Below are positions 16,750 through 44,215 of a DNA stretch of 64,000 bases, in pieces. Below the pieces are notes generated by a model. The model was not told the origin of the DNA. It was given only the letters and a program-made list of their open reading frames with translations, and did not search any database. This DNA comes from a virus. Position numbers and translations under genes: made by a program. Each line of letters opens with the position of its first letter. Position 1 is the stretch's first letter. The DNA lies in the IMG/VR virus record IMGVR_UViG_3300042291_001568, positions 1 through 64,000 of that record; one strand, written 5' to 3'.

Positions 16750-17526
16750 ATGAGAGCGCGGCCTAACGACCACGACCGTCTGATTGAAGAAGCGCGCACG
16801 CACCTTGGGTACAAACCAAGACCGGGCGGAATTTCTTTCTATGCGGAAAAGGTAGGGTACGCAAGTCACGGGTCGCCCTGGGACGGTGCGTTCATAGACG
16901 TAGTTGCACGGGATGCAAATTGCGTTATCCCATCTTGCACTTCAACATCTTCCGGCCTGGCTGAGTTCATCTACAGTGGACGGTGGCGAAAAACGCCTCG
17001 GCCTGGTGACATTGTCTTCTATTCTTTCTCAACGGGTGGTCCATGGACTCAACCTCACGTCGGAATAGTCACAGGCGTGGACCGTTGGAAAATTGATGGT
17101 ACGTTCATTGCGCTCGAGGCGATGGTGGATTCCGGCCTGCCCCAGGGCTCAAAAGAGATGACGGGTGTGTTTGAGCGAGTTCGTTGGAAGAACGAGGTTC
17201 TTGGATTTTGTAGGCCAAATTTCAAACTCAGGCCTGAGCTAGGAAAAAATAATATGACGGGTGCCAAAAACACCTTGAAGCTTTCGCACCTAAAGCCGAG
17301 GAAGAAACACGAAAGTGTCAAGGTTCTTCAGCAGGCTCTGAAGATTACCTCAGGATTGGTTTATTACGAGGCAGGCCACTACGACAACATGACCCAAAAC
17401 GCGTTCGCCCGTTGGCAACGCCAAATCGGGTACGTCGGCGAAGATGCCAACGGAATCCCAAATCACTCCTCACTTTCCCGATTAGGGAGCCAGACAGGGC
17501 TATTTCAGATCGCATCTGAAAACTAG
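16750..17526 (+). CDS. CHAP/NlpC-P60-like protein with C-terminal peptidoglycan-binding domain (endolysin-like)
   Basis: LIEEARTHLGY, PWDGAF, PGDIVFY, HVGIV; C-terminal VKVLQQAL...YDNMTQNAFARWQ (PG_binding_1-like). Confidence 0.75.
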   Translation: MRARPNDHDRLIEEARTHLGYKPRPGGISFYAEKVGYASHGSPWDGAFIDVVARDANCVIPSCTSTSSGLAEFIYSGRWRKTPRPGDIVFYSFSTGGPWTQPHVGIVTGVDRWKIDGTFIALEAMVDSGLPQGSKEMTGVFERVRWKNEVLGFCRPNFKLRPELGKNNMTGAKNTLKLSHLKPRKKHESVKVLQQALKITSGLVYYEAGHYDNMTQNAFARWQRQIGYVGEDANGIPNHSSLSRLGSQTGLFQIASEN

Positions 17527-17546
17527 GGAATATATAATAAAACCAG

Positions 17547-17960
17547 ATGAACAAGCGCCTAACTGACGAATGCGACAGCTGCGGCTCAGACATCCGTATC
17601 ATACCAGCGCCAGGGCTGAGCACTGACCCAGAGCAGACTATGTCTGGCTATCGCCAGGTTGAAAACGGCTGGTGTCTAAATCTGTCTGGCGGCTACGCTG
17701 AGTTTACTGACGACTGCTTTGTAGAAAACAGTCCACTGCTGTACGTTGTGCTGTGTCACGACTGCTGCTTAAAAATCGCAAGGATGCTTCCTAATCTATT
17801 TCCGCCGGGAACTGGCACGCACCCTCCGCATACTGAAAATAATTCCGATGCGTCGTGCTGTGAGTTTAACTGGTCTATAGACTCGCATGGCTGCACAGTC
17901 GTCGGCGACGGCAAAGGCGGCTGGGTTGAACGCATTGCGCCATCAGGAGAAGTAATCTAG
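17547..17960 (+). CDS. Cys-rich hypothetical protein
   Basis: First cassette gene; CDSC, CHDCC and CC motifs; stop lies in the next promoter copy. Confidence 0.7.
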   Translation: MNKRLTDECDSCGSDIRIIPAPGLSTDPEQTMSGYRQVENGWCLNLSGGYAEFTDDCFVENSPLLYVVLCHDCCLKIARMLPNLFPPGTGTHPPHTENNSDASCCEFNWSIDSHGCTVVGDGKGGWVERIAPSGEVI

Positions 17961-18045
17961 GGAAAATATAATTACCCTAAATCATAACGCAGGGTAAAGT
18001 CCTGTGTTATAATGACAGTATCCACAACGACATAGGAGACAGAAA

Positions 18046-18630
18046 ATGAAAACCATTCCAGTCCAGTTACAACCGTTTATTGAAGCACGACGTGCTCGTG
18101 GAAAAACCACGCGCGACATTGTTCAGTTCATCGTAGATGCTACGGACGTTCCGCTCACTGCGCTTGAAGTAACAAATCTCGCAGCACAACTCAACGAACG
18201 AGTCTACGACTACAACTACATCACGAAGATTCTTCGAGAGCTTATTGTTGACGGGCTTGCAATTAGCCGAATTGAAACCGATCAAGAGCGAAGCACTAGA
18301 TCTTACGGGCGTCTTGTGAAAGGTCACAACGCGACCTTATTCATTGGAACGTCAACGGGCCGCACGACAGTGCCGACACGCACGGTCGGTATTGCTGTCC
18401 CAGGCGTGGAGCTAGGCCAGAAGGTTGACGGGATCACCTACAGGTACAAGCACAAGACGAAAGCTGGAAAAAAGAAACGGGCTTCAACTCGTGTTCTGGT
18501 TTCCGGCCTGCCTAGCAAAACCACAGCGATGACGGGTGACGTTGCCGATCTTCTCGAGCAGCTGATTGCTGCACGAACAGCGAAGCTTCAATCGAAGCTT
18601 GATCGCATCACACGCATACTCGCCGAGTAA
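18046..18630 (+). CDS. putative winged-helix DNA-binding protein
   Basis: PLTALEV...YITKILRELIVDGL is wHTH-like; basic C-terminal half; AGGAG RBS. Confidence 0.55.
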   Translation: MKTIPVQLQPFIEARRARGKTTRDIVQFIVDATDVPLTALEVTNLAAQLNERVYDYNYITKILRELIVDGLAISRIETDQERSTRSYGRLVKGHNATLFIGTSTGRTTVPTRTVGIAVPGVELGQKVDGITYRYKHKTKAGKKKRASTRVLVSGLPSKTTAMTGDVADLLEQLIAARTAKLQSKLDRITRILAE

Positions 18631-18723
18631 AAAGTTCCGGCCTGAGCTGGGCTTCCCCGTGTATGACGGGCAGGCCTGAGCTCGGATTGTATTTCATTAA
18701 CGGGCACGTGTTATCGTGTACGA

Positions 18724-18981
18724 GTGATGTACAATTACGCGATGTACGTAGTCGAAGATCTAGAGCATTGCTTCATATCTGCGAATAAGGGTATCTACGA
18801 TTTTGTCATTGACGACGAAGAATGCAAGAACTGTGGAATGGTTGTTGGCCCGTATGGCGACTCGTTCTTCCCATGCGTAATTCTCGTAGGTCAAGACGAA
18901 GGAGAGTCATGGCCGATCTGCGTTGAATGCGCCGCGCCATTGCTGTACCCACGAGAATGGATCGATGAACTAGACGTGTAG
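18724..18981 (+). CDS. zinc-finger-like protein
   Basis: CKNC and CVEC motifs; start uncertain. Confidence 0.6.
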   Translation: MMYNYAMYVVEDLEHCFISANKGIYDFVIDDEECKNCGMVVGPYGDSFFPCVILVGQDEGESWPICVECAAPLLYPREWIDELDV

Positions 18982-19149
18982 CCAGATAATTAGTACTATG
19001 CCCGTAGTACTAATTATTCTAAGGATGATACTATTTGCTTCATCGGGATCGCCAATATCTGACTTAGCCCCACCTGGTGGGAAAACTAAGGATGGTATAA
19101 TGATCTCATACCCAAGCAATCCTGCCTGGGAGCGACGAAAGGACAAATA

Positions 19150-19404
19150 ATGGAACAGCGCAAATGGTGTCTCCTCAAGGGGAGCGACGTTGGCCCGATG
19201 GGCCGTGGCCAAGCTGGCAAGAAGAAAGTATACGAGATCATCGTCTCGGACAACGTTCTTCGTTGCGAGTGGGGCATGGCTGAAAAGACCCAGCGTCAAT
19301 CAAGCACTCGGGTGTTCACATCACACCAGTCAGCACGTGCCGCAGCCTACGAGAAGTTGTGGGCGAAGCAGGACCGCGGCTACACCGTGGCCTACGCTGT
19401 CTAA
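19150..19404 (+). CDS. standalone WGR-domain protein (paralog 1)
   Basis: KKVYE...CEWG...Q...A...K...K..RGY WGR pattern; promoter and RBS present. Confidence 0.8.
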   Translation: MEQRKWCLLKGSDVGPMGRGQAGKKKVYEIIVSDNVLRCEWGMAEKTQRQSSTRVFTSHQSARAAAYEKLWAKQDRGYTVAYAV

Positions 19405-19423
19405 ATAGACAGTGAAGTTCTGG

Positions 19424-19453
19424 AAGAGTGGGGGCTTCGGCCCCTGCTCTTTC
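19424..19453 (+). terminator. intrinsic terminator-like hairpin
   Basis: AAGAGTGGGGGC-TTCG-GCCCCTGCTCTTT after the WGR gene. Confidence 0.65.
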
Positions 19454-19500
19454 TAAGGAAGATATAATGAACTCAACAACCTATACAAAAGGACAAAAAC

Positions 19501-19797
19501 ATGAGCAAAGTAAAAATTACGTGGAAAGCATTTGGAGATCATCCAGAAGCAAAACCACCACGCTTCGTGTCATCGGTGACATTCTCACCAGTGGCAGTTC
19601 TGGAAAGAGCAGACGCGATGGATATCTGCAACCAAGTCTTTCGTGACACCAACATGTACGAAGGCCCGCTGTGGAAAGTCATCGAGCCACTTCTTTCGCC
19701 ATCACGCACGCACACAGCGCTGTCTGTCGGCGACGAAGTAGAAGTCGATGGAGTTACCTTCCGCTGCGAAAGCGCCGGCTGGTCAAAAATCAAATAA
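19501..19797 (+). CDS. hypothetical protein (YodL-like C-terminus)
   Basis: HTALSVGDEVEVDGVTFRCESAGW resembles the YodL SLSVSD motif. Confidence 0.6.
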   Translation: MSKVKITWKAFGDHPEAKPPRFVSSVTFSPVAVLERADAMDICNQVFRDTNMYEGPLWKVIEPLLSPSRTHTALSVGDEVEVDGVTFRCESAGWSKIK

Positions 19798-19954: not shown

Positions 19955-20011
19955 GAATTCTCAGGAATATATAATGAACATACCAACAACAACAACAAAA
20001 GGACAAATGAC

Positions 20012-20377
20012 ATGGGCGACAGAGCAGTAATCGGATTCAAAGCGGACTCGGCAGCAGTGCCTGTGTTCCTCTATTCTCACTGGGGTGGAAGTGACAGGTA
20101 CAAGGACGCGCAGCGAGCAATCACTGCGGCAGCCCCACGGTGGAACGACCACGCTTATGCGACACGCATCGGCATCTCACAAATCGTTGAGAACTACTGG
20201 GCAGAAGAAACTGGGTTCGGCATCAGCGCCGGCCACAATTCATTCAGCACACCAGACTACGATGACGTAATTCTCATCACGTGGGAAGACAAGTTAGTCG
20301 AGATCGTCAGCGCAGGTGACACCACAAAGGTTGCACAGACAATGACGTTCAAGCAGTTTCTGGATCAGACCTCCTGA
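20012..20377 (+). CDS. hypothetical phage protein
   Basis: Cassette promoter and RBS; MGDRAVI...LYSHWGG. Confidence 0.8.
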   Translation: MGDRAVIGFKADSAAVPVFLYSHWGGSDRYKDAQRAITAAAPRWNDHAYATRIGISQIVENYWAEETGFGISAGHNSFSTPDYDDVILITWEDKLVEIVSAGDTTKVAQTMTFKQFLDQTS

Positions 20378-20439
20378 TCTAGAAACTAAGGAAGATATAA
20401 TAGTCTTACAACCCACAACAACAAAAGGACAAAAACACA

Positions 20440-20652
20440 ATGTCAACACAAATGAACATTCACGCCAATGACGGAGACAAGCTCTCAGTTGAGATCAAAG
20501 ACTGGGGCACGTACATCTCAGTCACTTTCAACTATGGCCGCAACTCAGTCACGATGTATCCCAAGGACGGCGACACAAGCGTTGCTGTGCAAGTTCACGA
20601 AGTGCTCAAAGCGCTTAGCAATCCCGAGATGTCTTTCCCTGGCAAAAACTAG
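20440..20652 (+). CDS. hypothetical protein
   Basis: Cassette promoter and RBS; stop inside the next motif. Confidence 0.8.
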   Translation: MSTQMNIHANDGDKLSVEIKDWGTYISVTFNYGRNSVTMYPKDGDTSVAVQVHEVLKALSNPEMSFPGKN

Positions 20653-20694
20653 GGAAGATATAATAATCTCACAACCTACAACAAAAGGACAAAA

Positions 20695-21183
20695 ATGACA
20701 ACTGAGGTAAACACCAATGGCATTCACGTGGTCGGCAAAGCCGTCTACCTTGAATTCCGCAAAGGCACCAGCACAACGCAAGTTCTTCTGATGCCAGAAG
20801 GCATGGCGTCAAGCCATTCACTGGCACCACTAGCAATGTATCGTCGTCGCTTGAGCGTCATTCAGCCGAAGAAGACATGGCGACAAATCGCTTCAAGCGT
20901 GACGTCGGTATCGGCAAGCGCAGGTGGAGTGCGGACAGAGCAAGCAGCAATGAACTTGTTAGCGTTTGCTGACACACTGTTCCAAGGACTAGTCAAGAAC
21001 GAATGGAAACTCTACAAAGAGCCAGTCGTCGTTGAAGTGACAGCCGAAGACTTGGAAGATGTGCGCCGAGCAAAGACTCCATACAAGACTCTTGGCCGAG
21101 TATGGAAAGCACGCAAGTTCCTAGGATTCCCTAAAGAATACTACGACTCAGTCGCACCAACTCCTCCATCCCCAGTAATCTAG
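20695..21183 (+). CDS. hypothetical protein
   Basis: Cassette promoter and RBS; stop inside the next motif. Confidence 0.8.
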   Translation: MTTEVNTNGIHVVGKAVYLEFRKGTSTTQVLLMPEGMASSHSLAPLAMYRRRLSVIQPKKTWRQIASSVTSVSASAGGVRTEQAAMNLLAFADTLFQGLVKNEWKLYKEPVVVEVTAEDLEDVRRAKTPYKTLGRVWKARKFLGFPKEYYDSVAPTPPSPVI

Positions 21184-21228
21184 GGATGATACAATGACTA
21201 CACAACCTACAACTACAAAGGACACTAA

Positions 21229-22221
21229 ATGACAACTACAACCTACGATGCACTATACCCTGGACTGACTAAGATACTCGTTAGCGCTGCAACCCAAGTG
21301 TTTGACACTGACGCTGCAAAGCAAATGGAGCGTATGACGACAGATGCAGGCAGGGCTTCAGCAGGACGAAGTGCCGCCCCAAAGAAGAAAGCAACAATGA
21401 TCGAAGCAGACGCACTCATAGCCGGTGACAAGTTCAAGCGGCCTAATGGCGAGATGTACTACACTCGCAAGTGGGGCGAACACGACGATGTCATGGTGCT
21501 TCGCAAAGCTCGCGACATGAGCAGCTACATTCTGCTCTACGGTGCGCCGGGTTGCGGAAAGACTGCACTCGTTGAAGCAGCGTACTGCGATGAGCCGGGT
21601 GGCATGTACACTATTCTTGGCTCTGGCGATACTGAAGTCTCTGACTTAGTCGGTGGCTACGTTCAAACGCCAAGCGGTGGCTTCCTTTGGGAAGATGGCC
21701 CACTGCTCAAAGCAGCCGAAGCAGGTGGAGTACTGCTCATTGATGAGGTCGGACTTATTGACCCTAAGGTTCTATCCATTGTCTATGGACTTATGGATGG
21801 ACGCCGTGAGTACACGGTAACTGCTAACCCGGAGCGTGGGACAGTGTCAGCGGCTGATGGCTTCTTTGTCATCGCAGCGACAAACCCCAATGCACCTGGC
21901 GTGCGACTCTCAGAAGCGTTGCTCTCGCGATTCATTATGCAGGCAGAGATGACAACTGACTGGGGACTCGCTCGCAAACTCGGTTGTCCTATTCCAATCG
22001 TGACAGCGGCACAGAATCTCGCCAAGAAGCAGCAATCATCTGAAGTATCGTGGGCACCACAGATGCGAGAGTTGCTCGGCTTCCGAGATCTTGCTAAAGA
22101 GTTTGGCACAAAGTTTGCGATCGCAAACCTTCTTGCTGCGGCTCCCGAGATGGATCGTCCCGTAGTGGCCGACGTCTTCACCAGAGTCTTCGGCGAGGAA
22201 TGCCGACCTGCCAAGATCTAG
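21229..22221 (+). CDS. MoxR/CbbQ/NirQ-type AAA+ ATPase
   Basis: Walker A GAPGCGKT, Walker B LLIDE, sensor ATNP, ALLSRF. Confidence 0.9.
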   Translation: MTTTTYDALYPGLTKILVSAATQVFDTDAAKQMERMTTDAGRASAGRSAAPKKKATMIEADALIAGDKFKRPNGEMYYTRKWGEHDDVMVLRKARDMSSYILLYGAPGCGKTALVEAAYCDEPGGMYTILGSGDTEVSDLVGGYVQTPSGGFLWEDGPLLKAAEAGGVLLIDEVGLIDPKVLSIVYGLMDGRREYTVTANPERGTVSAADGFFVIAATNPNAPGVRLSEALLSRFIMQAEMTTDWGLARKLGCPIPIVTAAQNLAKKQQSSEVSWAPQMRELLGFRDLAKEFGTKFAIANLLAAAPEMDRPVVADVFTRVFGEECRPAKI

Positions 22222-22237: not shown

Positions 22238-22276
22238 GTGAGCCAGCCTTGAGTAGGTTGGGGCTGGCTCACTTTC
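22238..22276 (+). terminator. intrinsic terminator-like hairpin
   Basis: Perfect 11-bp stem GTGAGCCAGCC/GGCTGGCTCAC followed by TTTC. Confidence 0.65.
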
Positions 22277-22331
22277 AAGAATTCTAGGGATTGTATAATA
22301 ATCACATACCTATAAACACAAAGGACAAACA

Positions 22332-24128
22332 ATGACGCACATCAAATACAGGAAGACAACCAGGGCCGAGGCCACGCCTTCAGAGTGGCTCAGCGTTGGC
22401 TCACAGGTTGGCCAGTTGGCTAATATCTGGAGCACCCGCGGCGACCTCATCGGTTACGTAGGACCTGGCGCTGGTGGCATGGCCCCAGCTTGCTACACCC
22501 CAGCGACTGCCGAGGTGGAAGTCAACGTAGACGTTGCCTTCGGTAAAGGCGTCAACCCGAGCGACATCGGCGATCTTCGCGATCGAAAGAATCAATTTGA
22601 ATGGCCAAAAGCTACAGGCGCGATCTTTCACGAAGCTCTTCACGCTCGCTTCTCTAACTGGGACATCGAGCAGGCTTACAAGGATCTGTCCCCTGCGGAG
22701 TTCAAAGCGCTTCTTCATCTTGAGGAAGGCCGCATTGAAAGCAATGGCGTAGCAATCCTTCCAGAGAATGCAGGGTTCCTCCGTGCATGCGCTCTCGAGA
22801 TTGTGCTCGCTGACATCGCAGAGAACCCGATCGGTGAGTCAGACACTCGTGCAGCAGCAATGCTCGCAGCACTTACGATGGCTCGTGTTGACGCAGGAGT
22901 TCTAGAGCCTGAAGACATCACAGGCTTGACTGAAGTCATTGAGTCTAAGCTTGGCGCAGAGCGCCTTGCGCAACTACGTGGCTGCTGGCTTGCATCGCAA
23001 GAGTACACTCGCCACAACGACATCACTGGTCTTTACGATGTTGCTCGCGAATGGGTACGCATCGTTGAAGAAGCAGCCGAAGAGAATGGCGATCAACCTG
23101 GCGAAGAACCTGGCGAAGGCGGCGCTGGCGCAGGTGGCGACATCAGTGAGTTTGTCAAAGGCGCACTTGAAGCACTTCAAGAAGCAGCGGACTCTGCAGT
23201 GGTCGGCTCGTACGATCAACTCGTTGATCAACAAGAGATCGAAGAATGGCAGGCGGAAGCAAAAAGCCGTGCATCAGAATCTCAACAAGAGAAAGAGCAC
23301 AAGGACATTGCCAATGAAGTATTTGGTCAAGGCACTGGGCCGATGGCCGATGCCAAGACAAACAGCCGACTTCTTGAATCACGAGTGCCTTCAAGCGAAG
23401 AACGTTCAGCAGCAGTGCTGGTCGCTAAGATGCTTGAGAAAGCAAAGTATCGCGACAGGGATGTAACTGAGGTACACTCAATTCTTCCTCCCGGCAGACT
23501 TCGCACTCGTGCGATGGTCCAAGGTGCGGCACTCAAGAGCAAAGGCATCATGACTCAAGTTGAGCCATGGCGCCGCACAGCGCGCAAGCACGTTGACGAT
23601 CCAACACTTACGATTGGTGTGCTGGTTGACATCAGCGGTTCAATGGGTGAAGCGATGGAAGCGATGGCTACAACAGCGTGGGTCATGAGTGAAGCAGTGC
23701 GACGCGTGCAAGGTAGAGCAGCGATGGTCTACTTCGGCGAAGGAGTGTTCCCCACTCTGAAGCCAGGGCAACACCTTGACAAAGTCAATGTGTACACTGC
23801 GTCTGATGGAACTGAGAAGTTCACACGAGCATGGAAAGCGCTCGATGGATCGCTTCATTTGCTGAAAGGCACAGGCGCAAGAATGCTTGTTGTAGTGAGC
23901 GATGGTTGCTACACAGGCGTTGAGAATGCGAGCGCACGCAGGACACTTGTGGAGTGCGAGCGCAATGGCGTGGCAGTCTTGTGGCTACCGATCGATGATG
24001 GTCGCACGGCACGAGGCATCTGCCAAAGCACTACCTCGGCGGTCATGCTGCCGAACACGAAGTCGCCAGCACTGGTGGCTTCAGAGATCGGTAAGGCCGC
24101 AGCCCGAGCCCTCACGGCAGCAGGCTGA
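22332..24128 (+). CDS. vWA-domain protein (CobT-like) with N-terminal HExxH metallopeptidase-like domain
   Basis: FHEALH and LEEGRIE; acidic linker; MIDAS VDISGS...SDG; adjacent to the MoxR ATPase. Confidence 0.88.
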   Translation: MTHIKYRKTTRAEATPSEWLSVGSQVGQLANIWSTRGDLIGYVGPGAGGMAPACYTPATAEVEVNVDVAFGKGVNPSDIGDLRDRKNQFEWPKATGAIFHEALHARFSNWDIEQAYKDLSPAEFKALLHLEEGRIESNGVAILPENAGFLRACALEIVLADIAENPIGESDTRAAAMLAALTMARVDAGVLEPEDITGLTEVIESKLGAERLAQLRGCWLASQEYTRHNDITGLYDVAREWVRIVEEAAEENGDQPGEEPGEGGAGAGGDISEFVKGALEALQEAADSAVVGSYDQLVDQQEIEEWQAEAKSRASESQQEKEHKDIANEVFGQGTGPMADAKTNSRLLESRVPSSEERSAAVLVAKMLEKAKYRDRDVTEVHSILPPGRLRTRAMVQGAALKSKGIMTQVEPWRRTARKHVDDPTLTIGVLVDISGSMGEAMEAMATTAWVMSEAVRRVQGRAAMVYFGEGVFPTLKPGQHLDKVNVYTASDGTEKFTRAWKALDGSLHLLKGTGARMLVVVSDGCYTGVENASARRTLVECERNGVAVLWLPIDDGRTARGICQSTTSAVMLPNTKSPALVASEIGKAAARALTAAG

Positions 24129-24188: not shown

Positions 24189-24265
24189 CGGCACCTCTCC
24201 CGGGTACGAATATAATCTAGGGATTGTATAATAACTACTACAAGGACACACAACGGAAGGACAAC

Positions 24266-24676
24266 ATGAAAGCTACGTACACACTCTCAAAAGAACACGA
24301 CTATTCAAACTCGAGCCTCCCGTGGTACCGAAACCCGGACAACATCCCGGCGGACGAGCTCGAAGAAGCGGAAGCGCTATCGCGATCAATGTCAACGAGT
24401 GACAGCGAACACGAGTGGCGAATGCGTCACTACAAGTGGATGCGCATCGGCTACGGCTGGAGCGTCCGCTGCTACTATCCATGGTTCATGGATACACATG
24501 AAGATGGGATGCAGTTCATCCGCGGAATGTGCGATCATACTTGGGGTGAGCGAACCCAAGTTGGCGACAAGAATATCTACCTTGGCACCTACGAGTACGG
24601 CTACAACCACACGTGCTCAAAGTGTGACCACACAGAATATGTCAGAACATCATTCAACAACTACTCAGGAGACTAA
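24266..24676 (+). CDS. hypothetical protein
   Basis: Promoter and GGAAGGACA RBS before ATG 24266. Confidence 0.75.
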   Translation: MKATYTLSKEHDYSNSSLPWYRNPDNIPADELEEAEALSRSMSTSDSEHEWRMRHYKWMRIGYGWSVRCYYPWFMDTHEDGMQFIRGMCDHTWGERTQVGDKNIYLGTYEYGYNHTCSKCDHTEYVRTSFNNYSGD

Positions 24677-24677
24677 A

Positions 24678-36691: not shown

Positions 36692-36871
36692 ATGCTAAAA
36701 AGTAGACACATCAGAAACACACGAGCGGCCGAGCGTAGACTTTACGCAATCGTCGCAAAAGCAAATGAGCTAAAAGCAGAGTCAGAAGAAGTCCGTGAGT
36801 ACCTGCGGGAAAACCATGAGTCAATTGAAGCAACATTGAAAGCGTTTGACGTAGCGGGTATTCGCTACTAA
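36692..36871 (+). CDS. hypothetical protein (59 aa)
   Basis: AAAGGA RBS; TAA abuts the thyX ATG; absent from the ORF track. Confidence 0.65.
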   Translation: MLKSRHIRNTRAAERRLYAIVAKANELKAESEEVREYLRENHESIEATLKAFDVAGIRY

Positions 36872-37567
36872 ATGAAAGAGCTAATCAACGTTGGCGGAGG
36901 ATTCGTTCGCTTGGACGCAGCGATGGCAGACGACATGTCTGTCGTCAATGCGGCCCGAGTGTCGTTTGCAAAGCAAAAGCAAGAGAACGAATGGATAGCA
37001 ATGTCAGAGGTTGACAAAGGTCTTGTCAACTTTCTCATGCGGGAGCGTCATGGAACTCCGTTTGAGCACAACGCTTTTCGCTTCCATGTCAAGTGCCCGG
37101 TCTTTGTTGCTCGTGAGTGGTTTCGTCACCGTATTGGATCATTCAATGAGTTTAGCGCGCGGTACTCAGAAGTTCCAAATGAGTTCTTCGTGCCGGCTGA
37201 AAGTGATGTTAGGACGCAAGTCGGCAAGCCAGGCGCATATCGCTTTGAGCCTGTAGATGCTGAATTGTCTCGTGAGACTGTAGAACTCATTCAAAAAAAC
37301 AATGAGCAAGCGTACGAAGCGTACCAGCACATGATAGTTCGTGGCGTAGCAAAAGAACTTGCTCGAGCGGTTCTACCTGTCTCAATGTATACACAATTCT
37401 ATTGGACAGTAAATGCGCGCTCGCTCATGAACTTTTTGTCGCTGAGACAGCACGAGTCCGCGCAACGCGATATTCGTGAGTACGCTAATGCGGTGTGCGA
37501 ACTTGCGTCGCCTGTGATGCCGGTTACGTTTGCGGCGTGGGAACAAAACGCTCGTATCGCGCCGTAA
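36872..37567 (+). CDS. thyX: flavin-dependent thymidylate synthase
   Basis: ThyX signature RHRIGSFNEFSARY; HGTPFEH; ELARAVLP; NARSLMNFLSLR. Confidence 0.95.
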   Translation: MKELINVGGGFVRLDAAMADDMSVVNAARVSFAKQKQENEWIAMSEVDKGLVNFLMRERHGTPFEHNAFRFHVKCPVFVAREWFRHRIGSFNEFSARYSEVPNEFFVPAESDVRTQVGKPGAYRFEPVDAELSRETVELIQKNNEQAYEAYQHMIVRGVAKELARAVLPVSMYTQFYWTVNARSLMNFLSLRQHESAQRDIREYANAVCELASPVMPVTFAAWEQNARIAP

Positions 37568-37590
37568 ACTCAGGATTGTATAATGATACT

Positions 37591-37764
37591 ATGAACAACG
37601 CGGACCTAGACAAAGCAATTGACTTCGCGGAGGGATACCAGAATACGTATCCTTTCTGCAAAAAGATGGCAATTCACTTCAATCGACTTGGGTACCTTAC
37701 AAGCAGCCAGGTTCAGACCCTACTTTCAATCAAAAAGGAACATGGGCTAAAAGCTCGGTTCTAG
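37591..37764 (+). CDS. hypothetical protein (leaderless)
   Basis: ATG 6 nt after TATAAT. Confidence 0.65.
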   Translation: MNNADLDKAIDFAEGYQNTYPFCKKMAIHFNRLGYLTSSQVQTLLSIKKEHGLKARF

Positions 37765-37917: not shown

Positions 37918-37918
37918 C

Positions 37919-38098: not shown

Positions 38099-38176
38099 TT
38101 TTCTAGGGATGTTATTATAATCCTGTCAACCTTTACGGTAAGACAACAACAACGACAAACGACAAAGGACTAAGCT

Positions 38177-38692
38177 ATGGGAATGGATGTGTACGGAAGA
38201 AATGCTACGTCAGAAAAAGGCGAGTACTTTCGCAATAATGTTTGGTGGTGGAGACCACTGTGGAACTACTGTCTTGAAGTAGCTCCGGCACTATGCGGTG
38301 AAGTCGATGGCGACACTAATGGTGGCGATGGATTAGACGAAGATGGCGCACAAGAACTCAGCGCTATTCTAAAAGAGTGCCTTGCAACTGGGCACACCTT
38401 TGAATACGAAGACAAATACAACAAACACATCGCGGAGTTGCCACAAACAGACTGCGCGTATTGCGGTACGACTGGGATCCGCACTGACAAAGTAGGCGAA
38501 GAATTTGGAATGCCTGCTAAGCAACTGGAAGAAGCGCTTGCCGTCTTACTTGGCCGCACGCACGGCACTTGCAATGGTTGCGGTGGCGAAGGCAAGGTTG
38601 CTTCGTGGGAAGCTTCGTATCCATTCTCAGCAGAGAACGTTGAAGAGTTCGCAGAGTTTCTTGCGCAAAGCGGTGGCTTCTCAATTTGCTGA
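38177..38692 (+). CDS. hypothetical protein with DnaJ-like CxxCxGxG zinc finger
   Basis: YFRNNVWWWRPLW; CAYCGTTG and CNGCGGEG. Confidence 0.8.
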   Translation: MGMDVYGRNATSEKGEYFRNNVWWWRPLWNYCLEVAPALCGEVDGDTNGGDGLDEDGAQELSAILKECLATGHTFEYEDKYNKHIAELPQTDCAYCGTTGIRTDKVGEEFGMPAKQLEEALAVLLGRTHGTCNGCGGEGKVASWEASYPFSAENVEEFAEFLAQSGGFSIC

Positions 38693-38799
38693 TCTAATGT
38701 CCCGACCTCGATAAGTTCTTACTGTGATAAGACTCGAGGTTGGACTTACAATCTAAGGATTGTATAATAGTACTATCAACAACAACAGGAGGACACGCT

Positions 38800-39009
38800 G
38801 TGGCACATTACGTAGACACGGTTCTTGAAGGACTCAAGGAGATTGGTCATACGGCCAAGAAACTGGGCATCGAGAAAGTAGCAGAAGCTGCAGGGATCAA
38901 ACCGAGAATGGTAAAGAAGTTCACGGTTGACCCGATGACATGCAACAATGCGGACATCAGAAAGATCACAGCCGCCGTCAAAGAACTAACAGAGGACAAA
39001 CCAGAATGA
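38800..39009 (+). CDS. XRE-like HTH protein
   Basis: GGAGG RBS, GTG start; IEKVAEAAGIKPRMVKKF. Confidence 0.6.
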   Translation: MAHYVDTVLEGLKEIGHTAKKLGIEKVAEAAGIKPRMVKKFTVDPMTCNNADIRKITAAVKELTEDKPE

Positions 39010-39344
39010 CATCAGCAGAAGAAACAGTCATACGCCACATATCGCTCGGGGTATACGACAGTACGTTAGCGGACATAGAGAAAGCTCTAACAGAGCGACT
39101 CCGAGTCACGCGGCAGTCAAGAACTATCAAAGACTATGGCGTAGGCGACAAGGTCGTATTCAATAGCCTATGCGGTACACAGTACTTACAAGGAGCCACA
39201 GGGGTAGTTGTAGGCTTGAAGCAGAAAAAGTTGCTGGTCAAATTGGACAATCCAGTAGGACGATTTGTCCGCTATTCGTCAGATGGGAAAGTAGAGTCGT
39301 CGAGTATCAGTGTACCGACAAGCATCGTTGACATAGTAAGGTAG
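39006..39344 (+). CDS. hypothetical protein with SH3-like domain
   Basis: YGVGDKVVF...GATGVVVG...KLLVKLD. Confidence 0.7.
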   Translation: MTSAEETVIRHISLGVYDSTLADIEKALTERLRVTRQSRTIKDYGVGDKVVFNSLCGTQYLQGATGVVVGLKQKKLLVKLDNPVGRFVRYSSDGKVESSSISVPTSIVDIVR

Positions 39345-39350
39345 TACTCA

Positions 39351-39938
39351 ATGACAACCATAGTGTGCGTACAAGGACCTAAGTGGGCAGTAGTCGGCTA
39401 CGACTCTCAAGTGACAGAAGAAGATGGTCGTCGCTACACGATGGCACGCGGTTCAACAAAGGTCGCAAGGAATGGCGAGTTTCTTCTCGGTGCTGCGGGT
39501 GATGTGCGAGCAATCAACATCCTTACGCACGCATTCTTTCCACCACAAGTCGGTGACTTAGTTGGAGTGCGGCTAGACAAATACATGACTAGCAAATTCA
39601 TTCCTTCATTGCGGACGTGCTTTGAAGCTCAAGGCTACGCAGCGTCAGGTAAAGACGAGCAAGCACAGTACGGATCAGATGTTCTTGCGGTAGTCAATGG
39701 AACTGTCTACGTCATTGGTGACGACTACTCGTGGGTACGAGATGCTGCGGGTGTGTACGCGCTGGGAACTGGCGGCGACTACGCATTAGGCAGTCTGCAT
39801 TCGTTCGGATTGCCAAAGCTCATGACAAAAGTGTCTGCGGCTCAAGATGCGGTGCGGCAATCTTTACAAATTGCTGCAAAACTAGATCCCGGGTCAGGAC
39901 CACCTTTCCATATTGTAAGCCAACTTGCTCCAAAATAG
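39351..39938 (+). CDS. HslV/proteasome-beta-like Ntn peptidase
   Basis: N-terminal Thr nucleophile (MTTIV), DSQVT, K33-like STKV, ALGTGGDYALG. Confidence 0.85.
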   Translation: MTTIVCVQGPKWAVVGYDSQVTEEDGRRYTMARGSTKVARNGEFLLGAAGDVRAINILTHAFFPPQVGDLVGVRLDKYMTSKFIPSLRTCFEAQGYAASGKDEQAQYGSDVLAVVNGTVYVIGDDYSWVRDAAGVYALGTGGDYALGSLHSFGLPKLMTKVSAAQDAVRQSLQIAAKLDPGSGPPFHIVSQLAPK

Positions 39939-39961
39939 ACGCAAACGAAAGAAGAATAGAC

Positions 39962-40207
39962 ATGAACGACGAAAATGACCTGATGAGTTGGAGAGACAAA
40001 GCTGCATGCATTGGTCGCCAAGAACTATTCTTTGAAGATCACAAAAGTACTACGGTGCGAAAGGCAAAAAGCGTATGCGCTACCTGTGCGGTGATTGACA
40101 ACTGTAGAGAGTACGCACTCGTCCATACTGAGTTTGGAGTCTGGGGCGGAATGACTGCAAACGAAAGGCGACGTATGTTGCGGGTACGCCGTAGGCAGCA
40201 AAAGTAG
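39962..40207 (+). CDS. whiB: WhiB-family transcription factor (second copy)
   Basis: WRDKAAC...LFF...AKSVCATCAVIDNCREYAL...FGVWGGMTANERR. Confidence 0.93.
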   Translation: MNDENDLMSWRDKAACIGRQELFFEDHKSTTVRKAKSVCATCAVIDNCREYALVHTEFGVWGGMTANERRRMLRVRRRQQK

Positions 40208-40279
40208 AATGAAATACTCAATAGCTCCGTTGACTTGTAGTATCGTGTATGACTTAGGACAATATGTACGGAGGAAGCA

Positions 40280-40435
40280 ATGTCAGAAAACTCAGAGAAG
40301 CGTAAGCCACAAAAGTGGAAGTGCCCTAAATGCGACAACACTATGATCACTTTTGTCGGCCTTAGTGAGAACCCTACTTGCCGCAATCCTTCTGCGCACT
40401 CAACTACGACCGTAGAAATGGAAGAAACTAAATGA
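40280..40435 (+). CDS. small zinc-ribbon protein (51 aa)
   Basis: GGAGG RBS; WKCPKC...PTC...H. Confidence 0.65.
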   Translation: MSENSEKRKPQKWKCPKCDNTMITFVGLSENPTCRNPSAHSTTTVEMEETK

Positions 40436-40566
40436 TCTTTCTCGTACTTGCTTTCTTGTTTACGTTTGCGGCAATGTCAGTTCGCCTCGCTCGTAAAGAG
40501 AAGGTGCACGGTACGGCTCTTCTTGGGGTAGTCAGTCCTCAAAAAGATATTGACAAAAAATTGTAG
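40432..40566 (+). CDS. small membrane protein (44 aa)
   Basis: ATGA overlap; N-terminal TM helix. Confidence 0.45.
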   Translation: MIFLVLAFLFTFAAMSVRLARKEKVHGTALLGVVSPQKDIDKKL

Positions 40567-40608
40567 TACTTATGTACTTTTCAGTATCTACGAAGTAGTA
40601 TAAGACCA

Positions 40609-40926
40609 ATGACACACATGGATGCAGCAGCCTATGCGGTTCTCGATGAAGCAAAAGCGCTTATTGAAGAAGCAAGAAAGCAGCTTTCACTGATGCCAGA
40701 AGAAATACAAACAAAAACTACACTACGAAGGAGACAAACAAACATGTCAGAACTTACAGCACAGCGTGCGGGCGAACTCTACGCTCAAGGGCAATCAGTT
40801 ATTGAAGTAGCTCGAGCACATGGACTCTCGTACAGCCAGACTCGTAAGCTCATCGGAGCAAGCGGTACACCAATTCGCGATGCATCTGGTCGTCTCAAAG
40901 GACGTACCCGTAAGGCAACAGCGTAA
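40609..40926 (+). CDS. HTH DNA-binding protein (actinophage HTH_58-like)
   Basis: ELYAQGQSVIEVARAHGLSYSQTRKLIGASGTPIR; start may be 40744. Confidence 0.75.
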   Translation: MTHMDAAAYAVLDEAKALIEEARKQLSLMPEEIQTKTTLRRRQTNMSELTAQRAGELYAQGQSVIEVARAHGLSYSQTRKLIGASGTPIRDASGRLKGRTRKATA

Positions 40927-40928
40927 CT

Positions 40929-41099
40929 ATGCCAACTTGGTTCTCGCAATTGCGGAACTTAGTATGGACATCTGTTCTTGCGGTGATCATGGGTTTAGCA
41001 TCTGTGGTCACCGCAATTGCGGGTGGAAGTATTGAGGTAGTCGTTAGTCTCGCCTTGTTTGGAGCAATACTAAGCACCCTGTCCTCTAAGGTGCGCTAA
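40929..41099 (+). CDS. two-TM membrane protein (56 aa)
   Basis: Frame missed by the ORF track; MPTWFSQLRNLVWTSVLAVIMG...ALFGAILSTLSSKVR. Confidence 0.55.
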   Translation: MPTWFSQLRNLVWTSVLAVIMGLASVVTAIAGGSIEVVVSLALFGAILSTLSSKVR

Positions 41100-41143
41100 C
41101 ACTCGGGAATGTATAGTAGTAGTTATACAACAGAGGAGTAAAC

Positions 41144-41317
41144 ATGGAACCAGAAGTATTCAAAGTAACAGTGACCAATAGCGATGGAGACGACATCGTC
41201 GCCTACGTCACCCCCGTACAGAAGCAAGCCTATGTTCGCTCGATGACAGAAGAGTACGGTCCTGCCGTAGTTGAGCCGATGATGATTGCGGACCTTCCTG
41301 AAGGCATAGAACTCTGA
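41144..41317 (+). CDS. hypothetical protein (57 aa)
   Basis: Promoter variant and GAGGAG RBS. Confidence 0.65.
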   Translation: MEPEVFKVTVTNSDGDDIVAYVTPVQKQAYVRSMTEEYGPAVVEPMMIADLPEGIEL

Positions 41318-41475
41318 TGGTCTGGCTAGAGCACTTGCGTATTGCGGGTGGGCCAACAACAATTGAAGACGACAAGCGCGAACTGCGCAAAGTCGCAAAG
41401 ATCGATGCCGACTGTAATGAACGCTTTATGCGGGACTTACTTGGTGACGACGAGTACGAAGACTGGGACAACTAG
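41317..41475 (+). CDS. hypothetical protein (52 aa)
   Basis: TGATG coupling to the upstream gene. Confidence 0.5.
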   Translation: MVWLEHLRIAGGPTTIEDDKRELRKVAKIDADCNERFMRDLLGDDEYEDWDN

Positions 41476-41524
41476 TCTTCGCATTCAATACTAAATGACA
41501 AAACGACAAATAAGGAGATAACAT

Positions 41525-41890
41525 ATGTGGGTATTTACCCAAGACGGATTCGTAAGCGTGGTGGACAACCATCAACGCAAGGGATTCCTTACAGCACGAT
41601 CACGTGATCGTCAATCGCTAATCGCTCTTTCAGAGATTGCAAGCTGCGAAATTGAGTTCACACCTATGCGGGACTATCAGTACCGTACTTTCGTAACTCG
41701 AGATCAGTATTCAGAATGGCTTGCATTGCAATCAGAAATGCTGAACTACGGCAACTTCAAAGATCAAGTGCATAAGACACTTGGCGACACGTACTACCAT
41801 GCATGCGGTGAAGTATGGCACGCAATGAACATGGTTCAAGATGACGAAGCCGCGCAGTGGACTAGAGATCGCTACGCTGCGAAAGCGTAA
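41525..41890 (+). CDS. hypothetical phage protein
   Basis: AAGGAG RBS; MWVFTQDGFVSVV...DYQYR...YGNFK. Confidence 0.8.
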   Translation: MWVFTQDGFVSVVDNHQRKGFLTARSRDRQSLIALSEIASCEIEFTPMRDYQYRTFVTRDQYSEWLALQSEMLNYGNFKDQVHKTLGDTYYHACGEVWHAMNMVQDDEAAQWTRDRYAAKA

Positions 41891-42014
41891 CGCAATGGAC
41901 TCGCACGATCAAGCAACACTAATACTTTGCGTTGCTTTGGCCTGCTGCGTTGCGGTGCTTCTATGCCTGTGACTCAGAGTTTCACATCTATTCTGAAGTC
42001 GGAATGGATGTGAA

Positions 42015-42248
42015 ATGACTGCCAATCGACTCAAGTATGAGTGCGCCGCATGCGGTGAGATGTTTGCGAAGACTTATGAGCACATGAGCCATTACATGGA
42101 GAAGCACGACGAAGGCTACATACCTCGTGGGCAGCGTCGCTTGCGTAAGGTTGCGTGCCGGAGCTGCGTCAAAGAAATGCCAGTCCCAAACTTAGAAGCT
42201 GGCGAGTGGTGGCGTTGTGAGTGCGGCTTTGAGCTTCCACGATCTTGA
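42015..42248 (+). CDS. C2H2-type zinc finger plus zinc ribbon protein
   Basis: YECAACGEMF...HYMEKH; CRSC...CECG. Confidence 0.7.
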   Translation: MTANRLKYECAACGEMFAKTYEHMSHYMEKHDEGYIPRGQRRLRKVACRSCVKEMPVPNLEAGEWWRCECGFELPRS

Positions 42249-42329
42249 GGTAGCGGTTAGCTCGGGGCTAAAACTCGGGATGATAAAGTGTATCTATCAG
42301 CAAATGCTGGTAACGACAAAAGGATGATC

Positions 42330-42539
42330 ATGGAAACTATTACAATGAAGGGAGCCGTAGTTGCGGTTCTCACGCTCGGAAGCACTGTGCAAATCTGGGT
42401 GGCTTCGCCAACCGGTGACTCATCAGACTCACACATCTTTGAGATGCCAACAACGTCTGACTCACACGCACACGTCATTGCAAATATGTGGCGCAAAGCC
42501 TGGAATCTTCCAGCAGCTGACGCTCCTCTCGAGTTCTAA
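42330..42539 (+). CDS. hypothetical protein
   Basis: Promoter variant, hairpin leader and RBS. Confidence 0.7.
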   Translation: METITMKGAVVAVLTLGSTVQIWVASPTGDSSDSHIFEMPTTSDSHAHVIANMWRKAWNLPAADAPLEF

Positions 42540-42700: not shown

Positions 42701-42776
42701 TCACGACTTCTCACCTTGTACGTCAAAAAACTCAGGATGGTACAATGTTCTTACCAACAAGGAAAGGACGAATGAC

Positions 42777-42947
42777 ATGCAGATTACAGAAGACAACTAC
42801 AACGACATCCAGTATGTGACAGCTCATGACGACTGCGGTACATGCCGCGGACACCTAGAGTTCGCACTCGCAAACTTCAAGCGCACACCATCGATTGAAT
42901 CGATGACTGGGGACAATGACTGCTTCGGTAAGGTCTACATCGCGTAG
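42777..42947 (+). CDS. small Cys-containing protein (56 aa)
   Basis: Cassette promoter and GAAAGGA RBS; HDDCGTC; absent from the ORF track. Confidence 0.65.
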   Translation: MQITEDNYNDIQYVTAHDDCGTCRGHLEFALANFKRTPSIESMTGDNDCFGKVYIA

Positions 42948-42989
42948 GCCTTATCGCGGTCATTATCTAAGGATTGTATAATTGGCTAC

Positions 42990-43142
42990 ATGACAACCTA
43001 CATAGTTACCATCACACCTAACAATCCACAAACCATAATCAGCGGCGATCCGTATACTGCGTACGAAATAGCGTACACTAACGATCCAGCCCCGATCAAT
43101 CCAAAAACTTTCGACATCGAAAATTACGTCAAACTCGCATAA
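42990..43142 (+). CDS. leaderless 50-aa protein (DPY family, paralog 2)
   Basis: MTTYIVTI...DPYTAYE...NPKTFDIENYV; same length as 34009..34161. Confidence 0.7.
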   Translation: MTTYIVTITPNNPQTIISGDPYTAYEIAYTNDPAPINPKTFDIENYVKLA

Positions 43143-43268
43143 CACTCAAACCGCAAGGGCGACGGCGATTGCAACTCGCCGCCGCCATACGGCGATCAAA
43201 AACTGAGGATGATAAAGTGTACATATCAGCTAGGCACTCCGCCTGACTGAACGACGAAGGGACAAATA

Positions 43269-43598
43269 ATGGAAACACTACTCAACAAGCCAGTGATTGG
43301 CGAAGGAGCTACGGTCAGCTACTGCGCTGACTCGCACGCAATGACAATCATCGCGGTCAGCGATAACGGCAAGACAGTTACCGTTCAGCGGGATTCCGTC
43401 AAGCCAGCAGATCACGCAAACATCTACCGTGGCGCCAACTACAACAACATCTGGGTGACCACACCAGACCCAGCCGGAGCGACAATGGTCTTCACCCTCC
43501 GCCAGAATGGCAAGTACGTGGCGCAAGGTGAGCCAATGCGGTCAGGGACTAAGCTCCACATCGGCAGCCGCCACGAATACTACAGCTACGAGTTCTAA
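43269..43598 (+). CDS. hypothetical phage protein
   Basis: GEGATVSYCADSHAMTI...GSRHEYYSYEF; cassette leader. Confidence 0.8.
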   Translation: METLLNKPVIGEGATVSYCADSHAMTIIAVSDNGKTVTVQRDSVKPADHANIYRGANYNNIWVTTPDPAGATMVFTLRQNGKYVAQGEPMRSGTKLHIGSRHEYYSYEF

Positions 43599-43713
43599 GT
43601 AAGGACTCAGGGGCCAGGCTCGAGAGGGCCTGGCTCCCCCTCCCGGGGGGAATCTAGGGATGATAAATTGATCTCATCAGCAAGGCGCTGGTAACGACGA
43701 AGGGACAAATACA

Positions 43714-43965
43714 ATGAATAAGAAATGGGCACTCCTCAAGGGATCAGATATCGGACCAATGGGCCGAGGACAATCCGGCAAAAAGAAGATCTACGAGGTC
43801 ACGGTGACAGACACCACACTCCACTGCTCGTGGGGAATGGCCGAGAAGACCAACCGCCAGTCAAGCACGCAGGTGTTCCGCACCAGCCAGCAAGCACTCG
43901 CAGCCGGGTACGCCAAGGTCAACAGCAAGATGGACCGCGGGTACGCAGTAGCCTACTCGGTCTGA
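43714..43965 (+). CDS. standalone WGR-domain protein (paralog 3)
   Basis: Alignable with the other two WGR genes. Confidence 0.8.
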   Translation: MNKKWALLKGSDIGPMGRGQSGKKKIYEVTVTDTTLHCSWGMAEKTNRQSSTQVFRTSQQALAAGYAKVNSKMDRGYAVAYSV

Positions 43966-44215
43966 CCAGACCTCAACCCAAGGCCTCACCTCAGCAGCAA
44001 AGCTGGGGTGGGGCTCAGAGGCGCTCAGAAGCCCTGAGTGCCCTTGCGGTATCCACATCAGGTATTTAGGTAGCACGAGCACAGACCAAGTTCTAGGGCC
44101 TCTGGCAACACTCCAAAGCGAGGTGCCTTGCGGGCTAAGGTCCCAGGGCACAGTTCTAGGGATGATAAAGTACTACTATCAGCCAAACCGACTGGTAACG
44201 ACGAAAGAAGACAAA

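Follow-up and report, generated by a model that had tools for sequence, protein, structure and literature searches.

In T4-type phages, strong early promoters of sigma-70 consensus recur as PeSL elements, each preceded by AT-rich sequence and with a stem-loop terminator beside it; these elements sit between ORFans in hyperplastic regions, and recombination from copy to copy yields indels, replacements, and mini-circles (PMC2839356, PMC4122927). Here we describe an array of 58 promoter modules and small genes in the IMG/VR virus record IMGVR_UViG_3300042291_001568, a linear viral contig of 116,822 bp whose first 64 kb form the stretch under analysis (the window). The array shares with PeSLs a repeated strong host-type promoter between small ORFans in a hyperplastic region, with 58 copies in 27 kb, repeats that are crossover points for insertion, deletion, and replacement between related phages, and, in some units, a stem-loop paired with the promoter. 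It differs in having neither a −35 box nor an AT-rich or UP region and in carrying an element at −22 to −17 instead. Its stem-loops accompany only 22 of the 58 units, without a conserved G/C-tract form or a U-tract, and its genes begin either behind a stereotyped CA-rich leader or without a leader, as one-quarter of the units of its clade do. It is also one uninterrupted 27-kb block of 58 units rather than a set of scattered regions, and its host is actinobacterial; the phage is not T4-type, the kin of its large terminase (TerL) being in Microbacterium and Gordonia phages, and it encodes WhiB. The array is thus the actinophage version of PeSL-type promoter cassettes, which were already known but are new in this setting. 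A literature search found no prior description of such an array in actinophages.

Several other systems invite comparison. The early promoters of T4 and the terminal-redundancy module of SPO1 are early promoter sets or host-takeover modules of large virulent phages, and the array likewise has dozens of near-consensus host-sigma promoters, short transcripts, and small genes of unknown function in one orientation; it is denser (one promoter per 460 bp, and one per 350 bp in the relative G001), more uniform, and of another architecture. Extended −10 (TGn) promoters of sigma-70-family holoenzymes function without a −35 box, and the middle and late promoters of Thermus phage P23-45 reportedly lack one as well. 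At mycobacterial DNA-damage promoters, PafBC acts by sigma adaptation at −26 elements. The stoperators of cluster A mycobacteriophages are asymmetric sites of about 13 bp, mostly without promoters, at which the immunity repressor binds and elongation is blocked. Integron gene cassettes have no promoter, lie between attC sites, and owe their movement to an adjacent integrase.

We favor, at a probability of about 0.7, the reading that this locus is the hypervariable accessory-gene region of an uncultured freshwater actinophage in which a module of about 50 bp serves almost every small gene, host sigma-A would be the reader, and the repeats recombine.

Results

A repeated promoter without a −35 box

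A position weight matrix (PWM) over −25 to +2 was scanned across the whole contig with a cutoff of at least 14 bits. It returned 58 matches, all on the + strand and all within 17,521 to 44,171 (first motif start to last −10 end), and none on the − strand or anywhere on the contig outside the array; the top score in shuffled genomes was 13.9 bits. A strict 16-mer with up to two mismatches gave 38 matches against 0.06 expected. The initial annotation, made from the window alone, had placed about 58 copies at these coordinates, and the scan bore out both count and position. Its one − strand copy was not recovered, the sole candidate, at 16,030, being a weak partial match.

The consensus is AAWCTARGGATTG followed by TATAAT. 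In the per-position profile for this phage, C-22, T-21, G-18, G-17, A-16, and TATAAT are near invariant, and information stays below 0.2 bit across −36 to −26; therefore, the promoters lack both a −35 box and an AT-rich element upstream of it. A two-hexamer promoter scan passed only 3 of the 58 promoters, which is chance level. The profile agrees with the earlier description of a motif lacking a TTGACA-like −35 and conserved around −22 to −16. The −10 is TATAAT or a variant hexamer in all 58 copies, and the variants in this phage and its relatives (TACAAT, TAAAAT, TAAAGT, and TATAGT) all retain A-11 and T-7. Six nucleotides separate the −10 from a conserved A, which has a frequency of 0.83 at the predicted +1. 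Roughly one-fifth of the copies have TGn before the hexamer, while the majority have TTG, i.e., TG at −14/−13. The first eight promoters form a subclass, GGAAnA, without TG. At the terminase end, P53, P56, P57, and P58 (42271 to 44178), and also P31, form another, with a conserved leader that opens with a small hairpin, a weaker −10 (TAAAGT or TAAATT), and a canonical TGn step. Such grouping by position could reflect temporal classes or gene conversion between neighbors.

Conservation of the TAR in the motif merely as the stop codon of the upstream gene was rejected, because only 12 of 54 upstream open reading frames (ORFs) stop there. A depletion of TATAAT outside the array (11 seen versus 21 to 29 expected) proved unspecific, as hexamers of the same composition were equally rare. 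Among viral contigs, one other had multiple exact copies of the motif and the remainder had single chance matches. The same search in 185,579 prokaryote genomes gave single chance matches only, with no actinobacterial enrichment and no clue to the host.

The promoters are listed below from the PWM scan and the unit table; each span runs from −25 to +1, and bits are PWM scores.

17521-44171 (+): whole array; 58 promoter modules, about 75 ORFs, 3 ORF-less units
17520-17545 (+): P1, 28 bits; ORF 17547-17960, starting at +3
17954-17979 (+): P2, 27 bits; ORF 18046-18630, leader of 67 nt
19083-19108 (+): P3, 39 bits; ORF 19150-19404, paralogue family A
19450-19475 (+): P4, 28 bits; ORF 19501-19797
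19957-19982 (+): P5, 29 bits; ORF 20012-20377
20383-20408 (+): P6, 35 bits; ORF 20440-20652
20646-20671 (+): P7, 35 bits; ORF 20695-21183
21177-21202 (+): P8, 27 bits; ORF 21229-22221, AAA_5 (MoxR-like) ATPase
22281-22306 (+): P9, 37 bits; ORF 22332-24128, VWA-domain protein
24214-24239 (+): P10, 29 bits; three ORFs, 24266-25326
25320-25345 (+): P11, 40 bits; ORFs 25372-25871
25874-25899 (+): P12, 37 bits; ORFs 25925-26457
26647-26672 (+): P13, 29 bits; ORF 26696-26893
26913-26938 (+): P14, 40 bits; leaderless ORF 26938-27189 (ATG at +1)
27193-27218 (+): P15, 39 bits; ORF 27242-27538
27532-27557 (+): P16, 39 bits; leaderless ORF 27557-27976
27970-27995 (+): P17, 33 bits; leaderless ORF 27995-28174
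28168-28193 (+): P18, 35 bits; ORF 28220-28405
28399-28424 (+): P19, 40 bits; ORF 28448-28726
28726-28751 (+): P20, 38 bits; ORF 28781-29005
28999-29024 (+): P21, 29 bits; no ORF, small-RNA candidate c21 downstream
29098-29123 (+): P22, 33 bits; ORF 29148-29474
29533-29558 (+): P23, 30 bits; no ORF
29737-29762 (+): P24, 27 bits; ORF 29780-30079
30165-30190 (+): P25, 35 bits; ORF 30215-30481
30475-30500 (+): P26, 37 bits; ORF 30524-30751
30767-30792 (+): P27, 24 bits; ORFs 30810-31447
31587-31612 (+): P28, 33 bits; leaderless ORF 31612-31776
31781-31806 (+): P29, 32 bits; no ORF
31930-31955 (+): P30, 37 bits; ORF 31980-32228
32243-32268 (+): P31, 24 bits; ORF 32312-32476, hairpin leader
32544-32569 (+): P32, 39 bits; ORF 32593-32715
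32731-32756 (+): P33, 30 bits; ORF 32778-32906
32907-32932 (+): P34, 35 bits; ORF 32956-33066
33065-33090 (+): P35, 37 bits; ORF 33114-33365, paralogue family A
33433-33458 (+): P36, 40 bits; ORF 33482-33667
33674-33699 (+): P37, 41 bits; ORF 33724-33972
33984-34009 (+): P38, 34 bits; leaderless ORF 34009-34161, paralogue family C
34189-34214 (+): P39, 33 bits; ORF 34240-34473
34485-34510 (+): P40, 30 bits; ORF 34511-34672, starting at +2
34683-34708 (+): P41, 35 bits; ORF 34737-34964
34963-34988 (+): P42, 39 bits; ORF 35025-35345, DUF3846
35346-35371 (+): P43, 21 bits; ORF 35395-35586
35580-35605 (+): P44, 26 bits; ORF 35633-35890
35911-35936 (+): P45, 28 bits; ORF 35953-36162
36160-36185 (+): P46, 25 bits; ORF 36209-36379
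36373-36398 (+): P47, 36 bits; leaderless ORF 36398-36637
36641-36666 (+): P48, 38 bits; ORF 36692-36871, then ThyX 36872-37567
37566-37591 (+): P49, 36 bits; leaderless ORF 37591-37764
38100-38125 (+): P50, 23 bits; ORF 38177-38692
38750-38775 (+): P51, 37 bits; multigene unit 38800-41099, including WhiB 39731-40207 and a helix-turn-helix (HTH) protein 40609-40926
41099-41124 (+): P52, 17 bits (−10 TATAGT); ORFs 41144-42248
42271-42296 (+): P53, 18 bits (−10 TAAAGT, TGn); ORF 42330-42539, hairpin leader
42728-42753 (+): P54, 28 bits; ORF 42777-42947
42964-42989 (+): P55, 24 bits; ORF 42990-43142, starting at +2, paralogue family C
43200-43225 (+): P56, 17 bits (TAAAGT); ORF 43269-43598, hairpin leader
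43651-43676 (+): P57, 26 bits (TAAATT); ORF 43714-43965, paralogue family A
44153-44178 (+): P58, 17 bits (TAAAGT); small ORF, then DUF6011 protein 44396-44956 and LysM protein 44961-45281

Anatomy of the units

The 58 modules and about 75 ORFs fill 27 kb, with a median promoter spacing of 313 bp (range, 99 to 2,349). One ORF follows the promoter in 44 units, several in 11, and none in 3; the first ORF of a unit has a median length of 82 amino acids (aa), and the gap from the end of an upstream ORF to the promoter that follows has a median of 17 nt. A leader of 17 to 67 nt, with a sharp mode at 24 to 27 nt, precedes the ORF in 45 units; A makes up 47% of the leader bases, C 25%, and T 10%, and every leader closes with an AAAGGAC-like ribosome site. 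In the other 10 units with an ORF, the ATG lies exactly at +1 (seven units) or at +2 or +3 (three units), and these are predicted from their sequence to make leaderless mRNAs, which are common in actinobacteria (PMC3898074). The layout given in the initial annotation (6-nt spacer, A/C-rich leader, ribosome site, one ORF) therefore holds for most units but not for the 10 leaderless and 3 ORF-less ones.

A stable hairpin (z below −2 relative to shuffled sequence) stands directly 5′ of 22 of the 58 promoters, and the mean folding energy there is −13.8 kcal/mol, compared with −9.1 kcal/mol at random array positions (P = 1.5e−7). These hairpins have no conserved G/C-tract form and no U-tract, and a terminator scan found canonical terminators in the array at chance level. 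With so few hairpins and terminators, the units are likely only partly insulated, with much read-through. The term self-contained, used in the initial annotation, therefore applies to them only in part. Four of the stem-loops are as follows.

19424-19451 (+): stem-loop directly 5′ of P4, z −5.3
22238-22272 (+): stem-loop 5′ of P9, −26.6 kcal/mol, z −5.6
27161-27194 (+): stem-loop 5′ of P15, overlapping the end of the preceding ORF, z −4.5
43610-43637 (+): stem-loop 5′ of P57, −32 kcal/mol

Only about 10 array proteins matched Pfam (AAA_5 ATPase, VWA, ThyX, WhiB, DUF3846, DUF6011, LysM, two WGR, and HTH), and 63 of 73 had no match. ThyX, the flavin-dependent thymidylate synthase behind P48, is among the few metabolic genes of the array.

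Arrays in relatives

A TerL search yielded 112 related contigs, and the analysis covered the best 80 of these. A generic form of the motif occurred 217 times on the terminase strand versus 23 times on the other. Loci with at least four copies numbered 24 and formed one clade on the TerL tree. Positions C-22, T/C-21, R-19, R-18, and G-17 are kept throughout the clade, while each lineage has its own version of −16 to −13 and of the discriminator; gene conversion among repeats and coevolution with a factor explain this drift equally well. The −22 to −17 element reemerged when sites were picked solely by a −10 plus a downstream ribosome site or ATG. It is real and clade-wide at the level of sequence. 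In L254:11000-20200, inside the −20-type clade, the −10 is TAAAAT and CTAAAG is kept at −22 to −17; therefore, counts based on TATAAT underestimate the spread of the arrays. L070 and DSL-LC01 have a canonical TGT followed by TATAAT, and 56 regex-defined promoters occupy 20 kb of G001.

Sister clades (L113, L117, and L106) have comparable arrays with the same leaders, driven by TTGACAA-N16/17-TAnnnT or by a TGACA box plus TGG-TATAAT. About half of the array promoters in L113:100-9500 consist of TTGACAA, TGTCSGTG, eight bases, and TAnnnT. Their sequence and spacing correspond to the box through which PafBC (RecA-NDp) acts at mycobacterial DNA-damage promoters, in this case joined to a −35; only these L113 promoters resemble that box in both respects. 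In two cultured relatives, Gordonia phage GodonK and Microbacterium phage Cece, the small genes 5′ of the terminase are arranged as operons, and no repeated promoter was found there.

Transcription start and polymerase

The built-in start codons of the units provide a ruler for placing the start of transcription. Behind 266 distinct promoters of the clade, 228 of them scorable, we located the first ATG that begins an ORF of at least 40 aa. It lay 6 nt after the −10 in 42 cases and 7 nt after it in 15 (57 of 228 in all), almost never 8 to 26 nt after it, and in a second mode at 27 to 33 nt. An ATG that near the −10 is possible only if the mRNA starts there, which points to the conserved A, seven bases after the −10, as the start. 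This is the classical sigma-70-family distance, and the sequence evidence supports a promoter function for the repeats.

No sigma region 2 or 4 was found in the ORFs of the contig, which is an estimated 87% complete; a family search of the contig, run without a positive control, gave no T7-type polymerase, and the catalytic motif DxDGD was absent from every contig ORF of at least 150 aa. That no phage sigma factor or RNA polymerase was detected favors host sigma-A as the reader, and the canonical promoters of the sister-clade arrays, together with the perfect −10 and TG-like step, make it the most economical one. Most likely, then, the host primary sigma-A RNA polymerase reads the modules without −35 contacts, as at extended −10 promoters. 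Like those, the array promoters have a consensus −10 with a predicted start 7 nt downstream of it, do without a −35, and in most copies carry a TG close to the hexamer. In contrast to those, the TG is mostly one base nearer the −10 (TTG plus TATAAT, with canonical TGn in about one-fifth), and C-22 T-21 .. R-18 G-17 lies outside the extended −10 definition. Candidate roles for this −20 element are a basal element of a new kind, a binding site for an adaptor protein, and an operator. PafBC offers an actinobacterial precedent, in that an accessory protein recognizes a conserved element lying between the −35 and −10 regions of promoters without a −35 box, but the array element is centered near −20 rather than −26, has another sequence, and has no PafBC-like gene tied to it. 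The need for a phage factor or host cofactor at the −20 region, raised in the initial annotation, is slightly disfavored.

Cassette turnover

In two relatives whose TerL is 85 to 88% identical, only about 20 and about 30 of the roughly 75 array proteins are shared and gene order is partly scrambled; a gene may be leaderless in one phage and leadered in another. The comparison supports a hypervariable ORFan island. Three dispersed paralogue families (44 to 70% identity) have members up to 24 kb apart, each with its own promoter, which suggests that they arose by unequal exchange between promoters.

19150-19404, 33114-33365, 43714-43965 (+): paralogue family A, behind P3, P35, and P57
25372-25671, 27242-27538 (+): paralogue pair, in units P11 and P15
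34009-34161, 42990-43142 (+): paralogue family C, behind P38 and P55

Pairs of relatives that are 96 to 99% identical were compared for indels, and the overlap of the flanks was read at each junction. Six were clean whole-cassette events with both breakpoints inside the promoter module and 14 to 82 nt shared: L045/L046 (405 bp, one ORF, overlap of 14 nt), L072/L073 (390 bp, 27 nt), L261/L331 (3,933 bp, with a 44-nt overlap covering promoter, leader, and ribosome site), L276/L280 (315 bp, 42 nt), and, in the −35-type sister clade, L326/L327 (349 bp, with an 82-nt overlap of hairpin plus promoter) and L326/L328 (358 bp, 23 nt). The repeats had been proposed as recombination points, and whole-cassette indels between near-identical relatives do break inside the module. 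That breakpoints would coincide with the motif was borne out in these six events and not in several others, which were not clearly at modules. Judged from these alignments, module-mediated exchange is common but not exclusive. Integron cassettes were ruled out as a model, since each unit has its own promoter and the junction repeats are promoters rather than attC-like imperfect palindromes; a Pfam search found no integrase family among the array proteins.

ORF-less units

The three units without an ORF probably encode small RNAs, to judge from their sequences; an Rfam search of the three gave no match.

29024-29092 (+): c21, small-RNA candidate behind P21, 62-nt core
29558-29735 (+): c23, ORF-less transcript candidate, G+C-rich and structured, z −1.3 (not significant)
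31806-31905 (+): c29, small-RNA candidate with paired 5′ and 3′ ends, z −5.8

The c21 core contains three hairpins and shows 100% identity among three lineages with proteins just 65 to 85% identical; in a fourth lineage, it has one G-C to U-A compensatory change. Outside the window, the copies lie in L264, L258, and L041, and every copy stands directly 3′ of the −10 of its own lineage. This pattern indicates that c21 is probably a conserved phage small RNA. No homologues of c23 or c29 were found among the fetched relatives.

The phage and genes outside the array

The contig has a G+C content of 47.6% and encodes three WhiB proteins, a family restricted to Actinobacteria and their phages (PMC13013590). 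Its TerL, the right-hand boundary of the array and the anchor for finding relatives, shares 84% identity with its counterpart in "Actinomycetia phage DSL-LC01", a metagenome assembly from Dishui Lake, and 43 to 61% with the terminases of its nearest cultured relatives, phages of Microbacterium, Gordonia, and Arthrobacter. The WhiB genes and this kinship identify the phage, by sequence, as an uncultured freshwater actinophage. No near-identical DNA was found among GenBank phages; the closest record is DSL-LC01, which has an array of the same kind, and its published description mentions neither promoters nor repeats.

45323-46753 (+): large terminase, TerL
678-2726 (+): B12-dependent ribonucleotide reductase
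3344-3667 (+): second WhiB gene
7156-8937 (−): subtilase (S8 peptidase, I9 propeptide), upstream of the array on the opposite strand
10105-13389 (−): 1,094-aa beta-helix protein, upstream of the array on the opposite strand
14847-14919 (+): tRNA-Thr (TGT)
52513-64000, continuing to contig position 67992: 5,159-aa ORF between portal and capsid genes

The 5,159-aa protein has exonuclease, KTSC, WYL, UvrD-helicase, ADP-ribosyltransferase, and NUDIX domains. This "polyvalent" head-module protein may be injected with the DNA, in which case its ADP-ribosyltransferase could act on host RNA polymerase by analogy with Alt of T4.

Discussion

If the reading favored above is right, each module of about 50 bp would open with an occasional stem-loop that may stop upstream transcripts. 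It would continue with a promoter lacking a −35 box and made of C-22 T-21 N R R G-17, a TG-like step at −15 to −13, and a perfect TATAAT. Transcription would start at the A seven bases after the −10, followed by an A/C-rich leader with AAAGGAC or by the AUG itself. Host sigma-A RNA polymerase is the presumed reader, and early timing would be expected from the analogy to T4 and SPO1, which also makes a role of the genes early in infection or in host takeover plausible. Being near-identical direct repeats, the modules undergo homologous recombination or slippage from one to another, which deletes, inserts, duplicates, and reorders whole genes; the comparison of relatives bears out this step.

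Several points weigh against this account. Start sites, timing, and polymerase are all inferred, for a phage and host that are uncultured, and a polymerase or sigma gene could sit in the part missing from a contig that is 87% complete. The conserved −22 to −17 stretch has no known contact in the sigma-A holoenzyme, which leaves room for an extra factor. Five or six of about 13 indels, including all three between L302 and L308, overlap by only 3 to 9 nt and are not clearly at promoter modules, and the L065/L067 replacement ends at a hairpin rather than a promoter. Moreover, indels that preserve genes are expected to be intergenic anyway, and intergenic space here is nearly all promoter.

An unlikely alternative holds that the promoters are a special class that sigma-A cannot use alone, C-22 to G-17 being read by an injected protein, by WhiB at region 4, or by RbpA/CarD. 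The element is indeed conserved like a protein-binding site, kept across lineages while its neighbors drift, in promoters without a −35. The phage, moreover, has three WhiBs, a class of phage protein that binds sigma-A region 4 in pull-downs (PMC13013590), and a giant head-module protein with ADP-ribosyltransferase and WYL domains that could be injected. Yet all 58 promoters are of one class, so that the first transcripts would need a factor already present, and the WhiB of the array is itself behind such a promoter. A perfect TATAAT plus TG step is normally enough without a −35, as textbooks have it, and the sister clades drive the same kind of array with canonical host-type promoters. Still less probable is an operator at −25 to −14, loosely AATC-N4-GATT, at which one phage regulator would switch the whole island in stoperator fashion, leaving an ordinary −10. 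Like stoperators, the motif occurs in tens of copies in one orientation in the short intergenic gaps of an actinophage; it has a weak dyad symmetry, its −16 to −13 and discriminator are lineage specific as if a regulator coevolved with its site, and the array encodes an HTH protein. The symmetry is poor, however, with T-21 and G-18 invariant yet not symmetric, and no repressor was identified. Gene conversion among repeats accounts for the lineage drift equally well, and each copy, in contrast to stoperators, is joined with constant spacing to a consensus −10 and start, as expected of a promoter part.

Two further possibilities seem very improbable. Some 27 contiguous conserved bases in one genome are typical of single-subunit polymerase promoters, and in an 87% complete contig the gene for such a polymerase, or for a phage sigma factor recognizing the motif, might have gone undetected; against this stand the searches for sigma regions, T7-type polymerases, and DxDGD described above, an invariant core that is the classical sigma-70-family −10 at the classical start distance, and the classical −35 added in sister clades. 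The motif might instead be an RNA processing site that releases monocistronic, sometimes AUG-ended, mRNAs from long read-through transcripts, given that most units lack a terminator and the motif would be transcribed from upstream promoters. Its core, however, matches TATAAT exactly, with a purine start 6 nt farther on; TACAAT, TAAAAT, and TAAAGT, the variants observed, keep the promoter-critical A-11 and T-7, and no conserved RNA structure spans the motif.

Within the reading of sigma-A-dependent modules, promoters without a −35 could be favored by a phage that blocks sigma region 4. Phage WhiB might thus block −35 reading while sparing the phage's own promoters, an idea that fits the published binding noted above. 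A tentative extension, which we consider rather doubtful, is that C-22 T-21 N R R G-17 is an unrecognized freshwater-actinobacterial element that replaces the −35 and is read by a part of the sigma-A holoenzyme for which base-specific contacts are not known or by a preexisting or injected adaptor, related lineages having switched whole arrays between −35-type and −20-type promoters. If so, the −20 element and WhiB at sigma region 4 would let the phage transcribe while −35-dependent host promoters are shut down.

The array thus poses a testable question about a conserved −20 element in −35-less actinobacterial promoters. With its relatives, it is a natural library of several hundred promoter variants for uncultured freshwater actinobacteria, and the consensus module could be used as a compact strong promoter and 5′ untranslated region part for actinobacteria. 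Gene shuffling mediated by promoters was described for T4-type phages, whose hosts are Gram-negative; its occurrence in an actinophage family unrelated to them, and with another promoter, suggests that recombinase-free turnover of accessory genes may be general to large phages.

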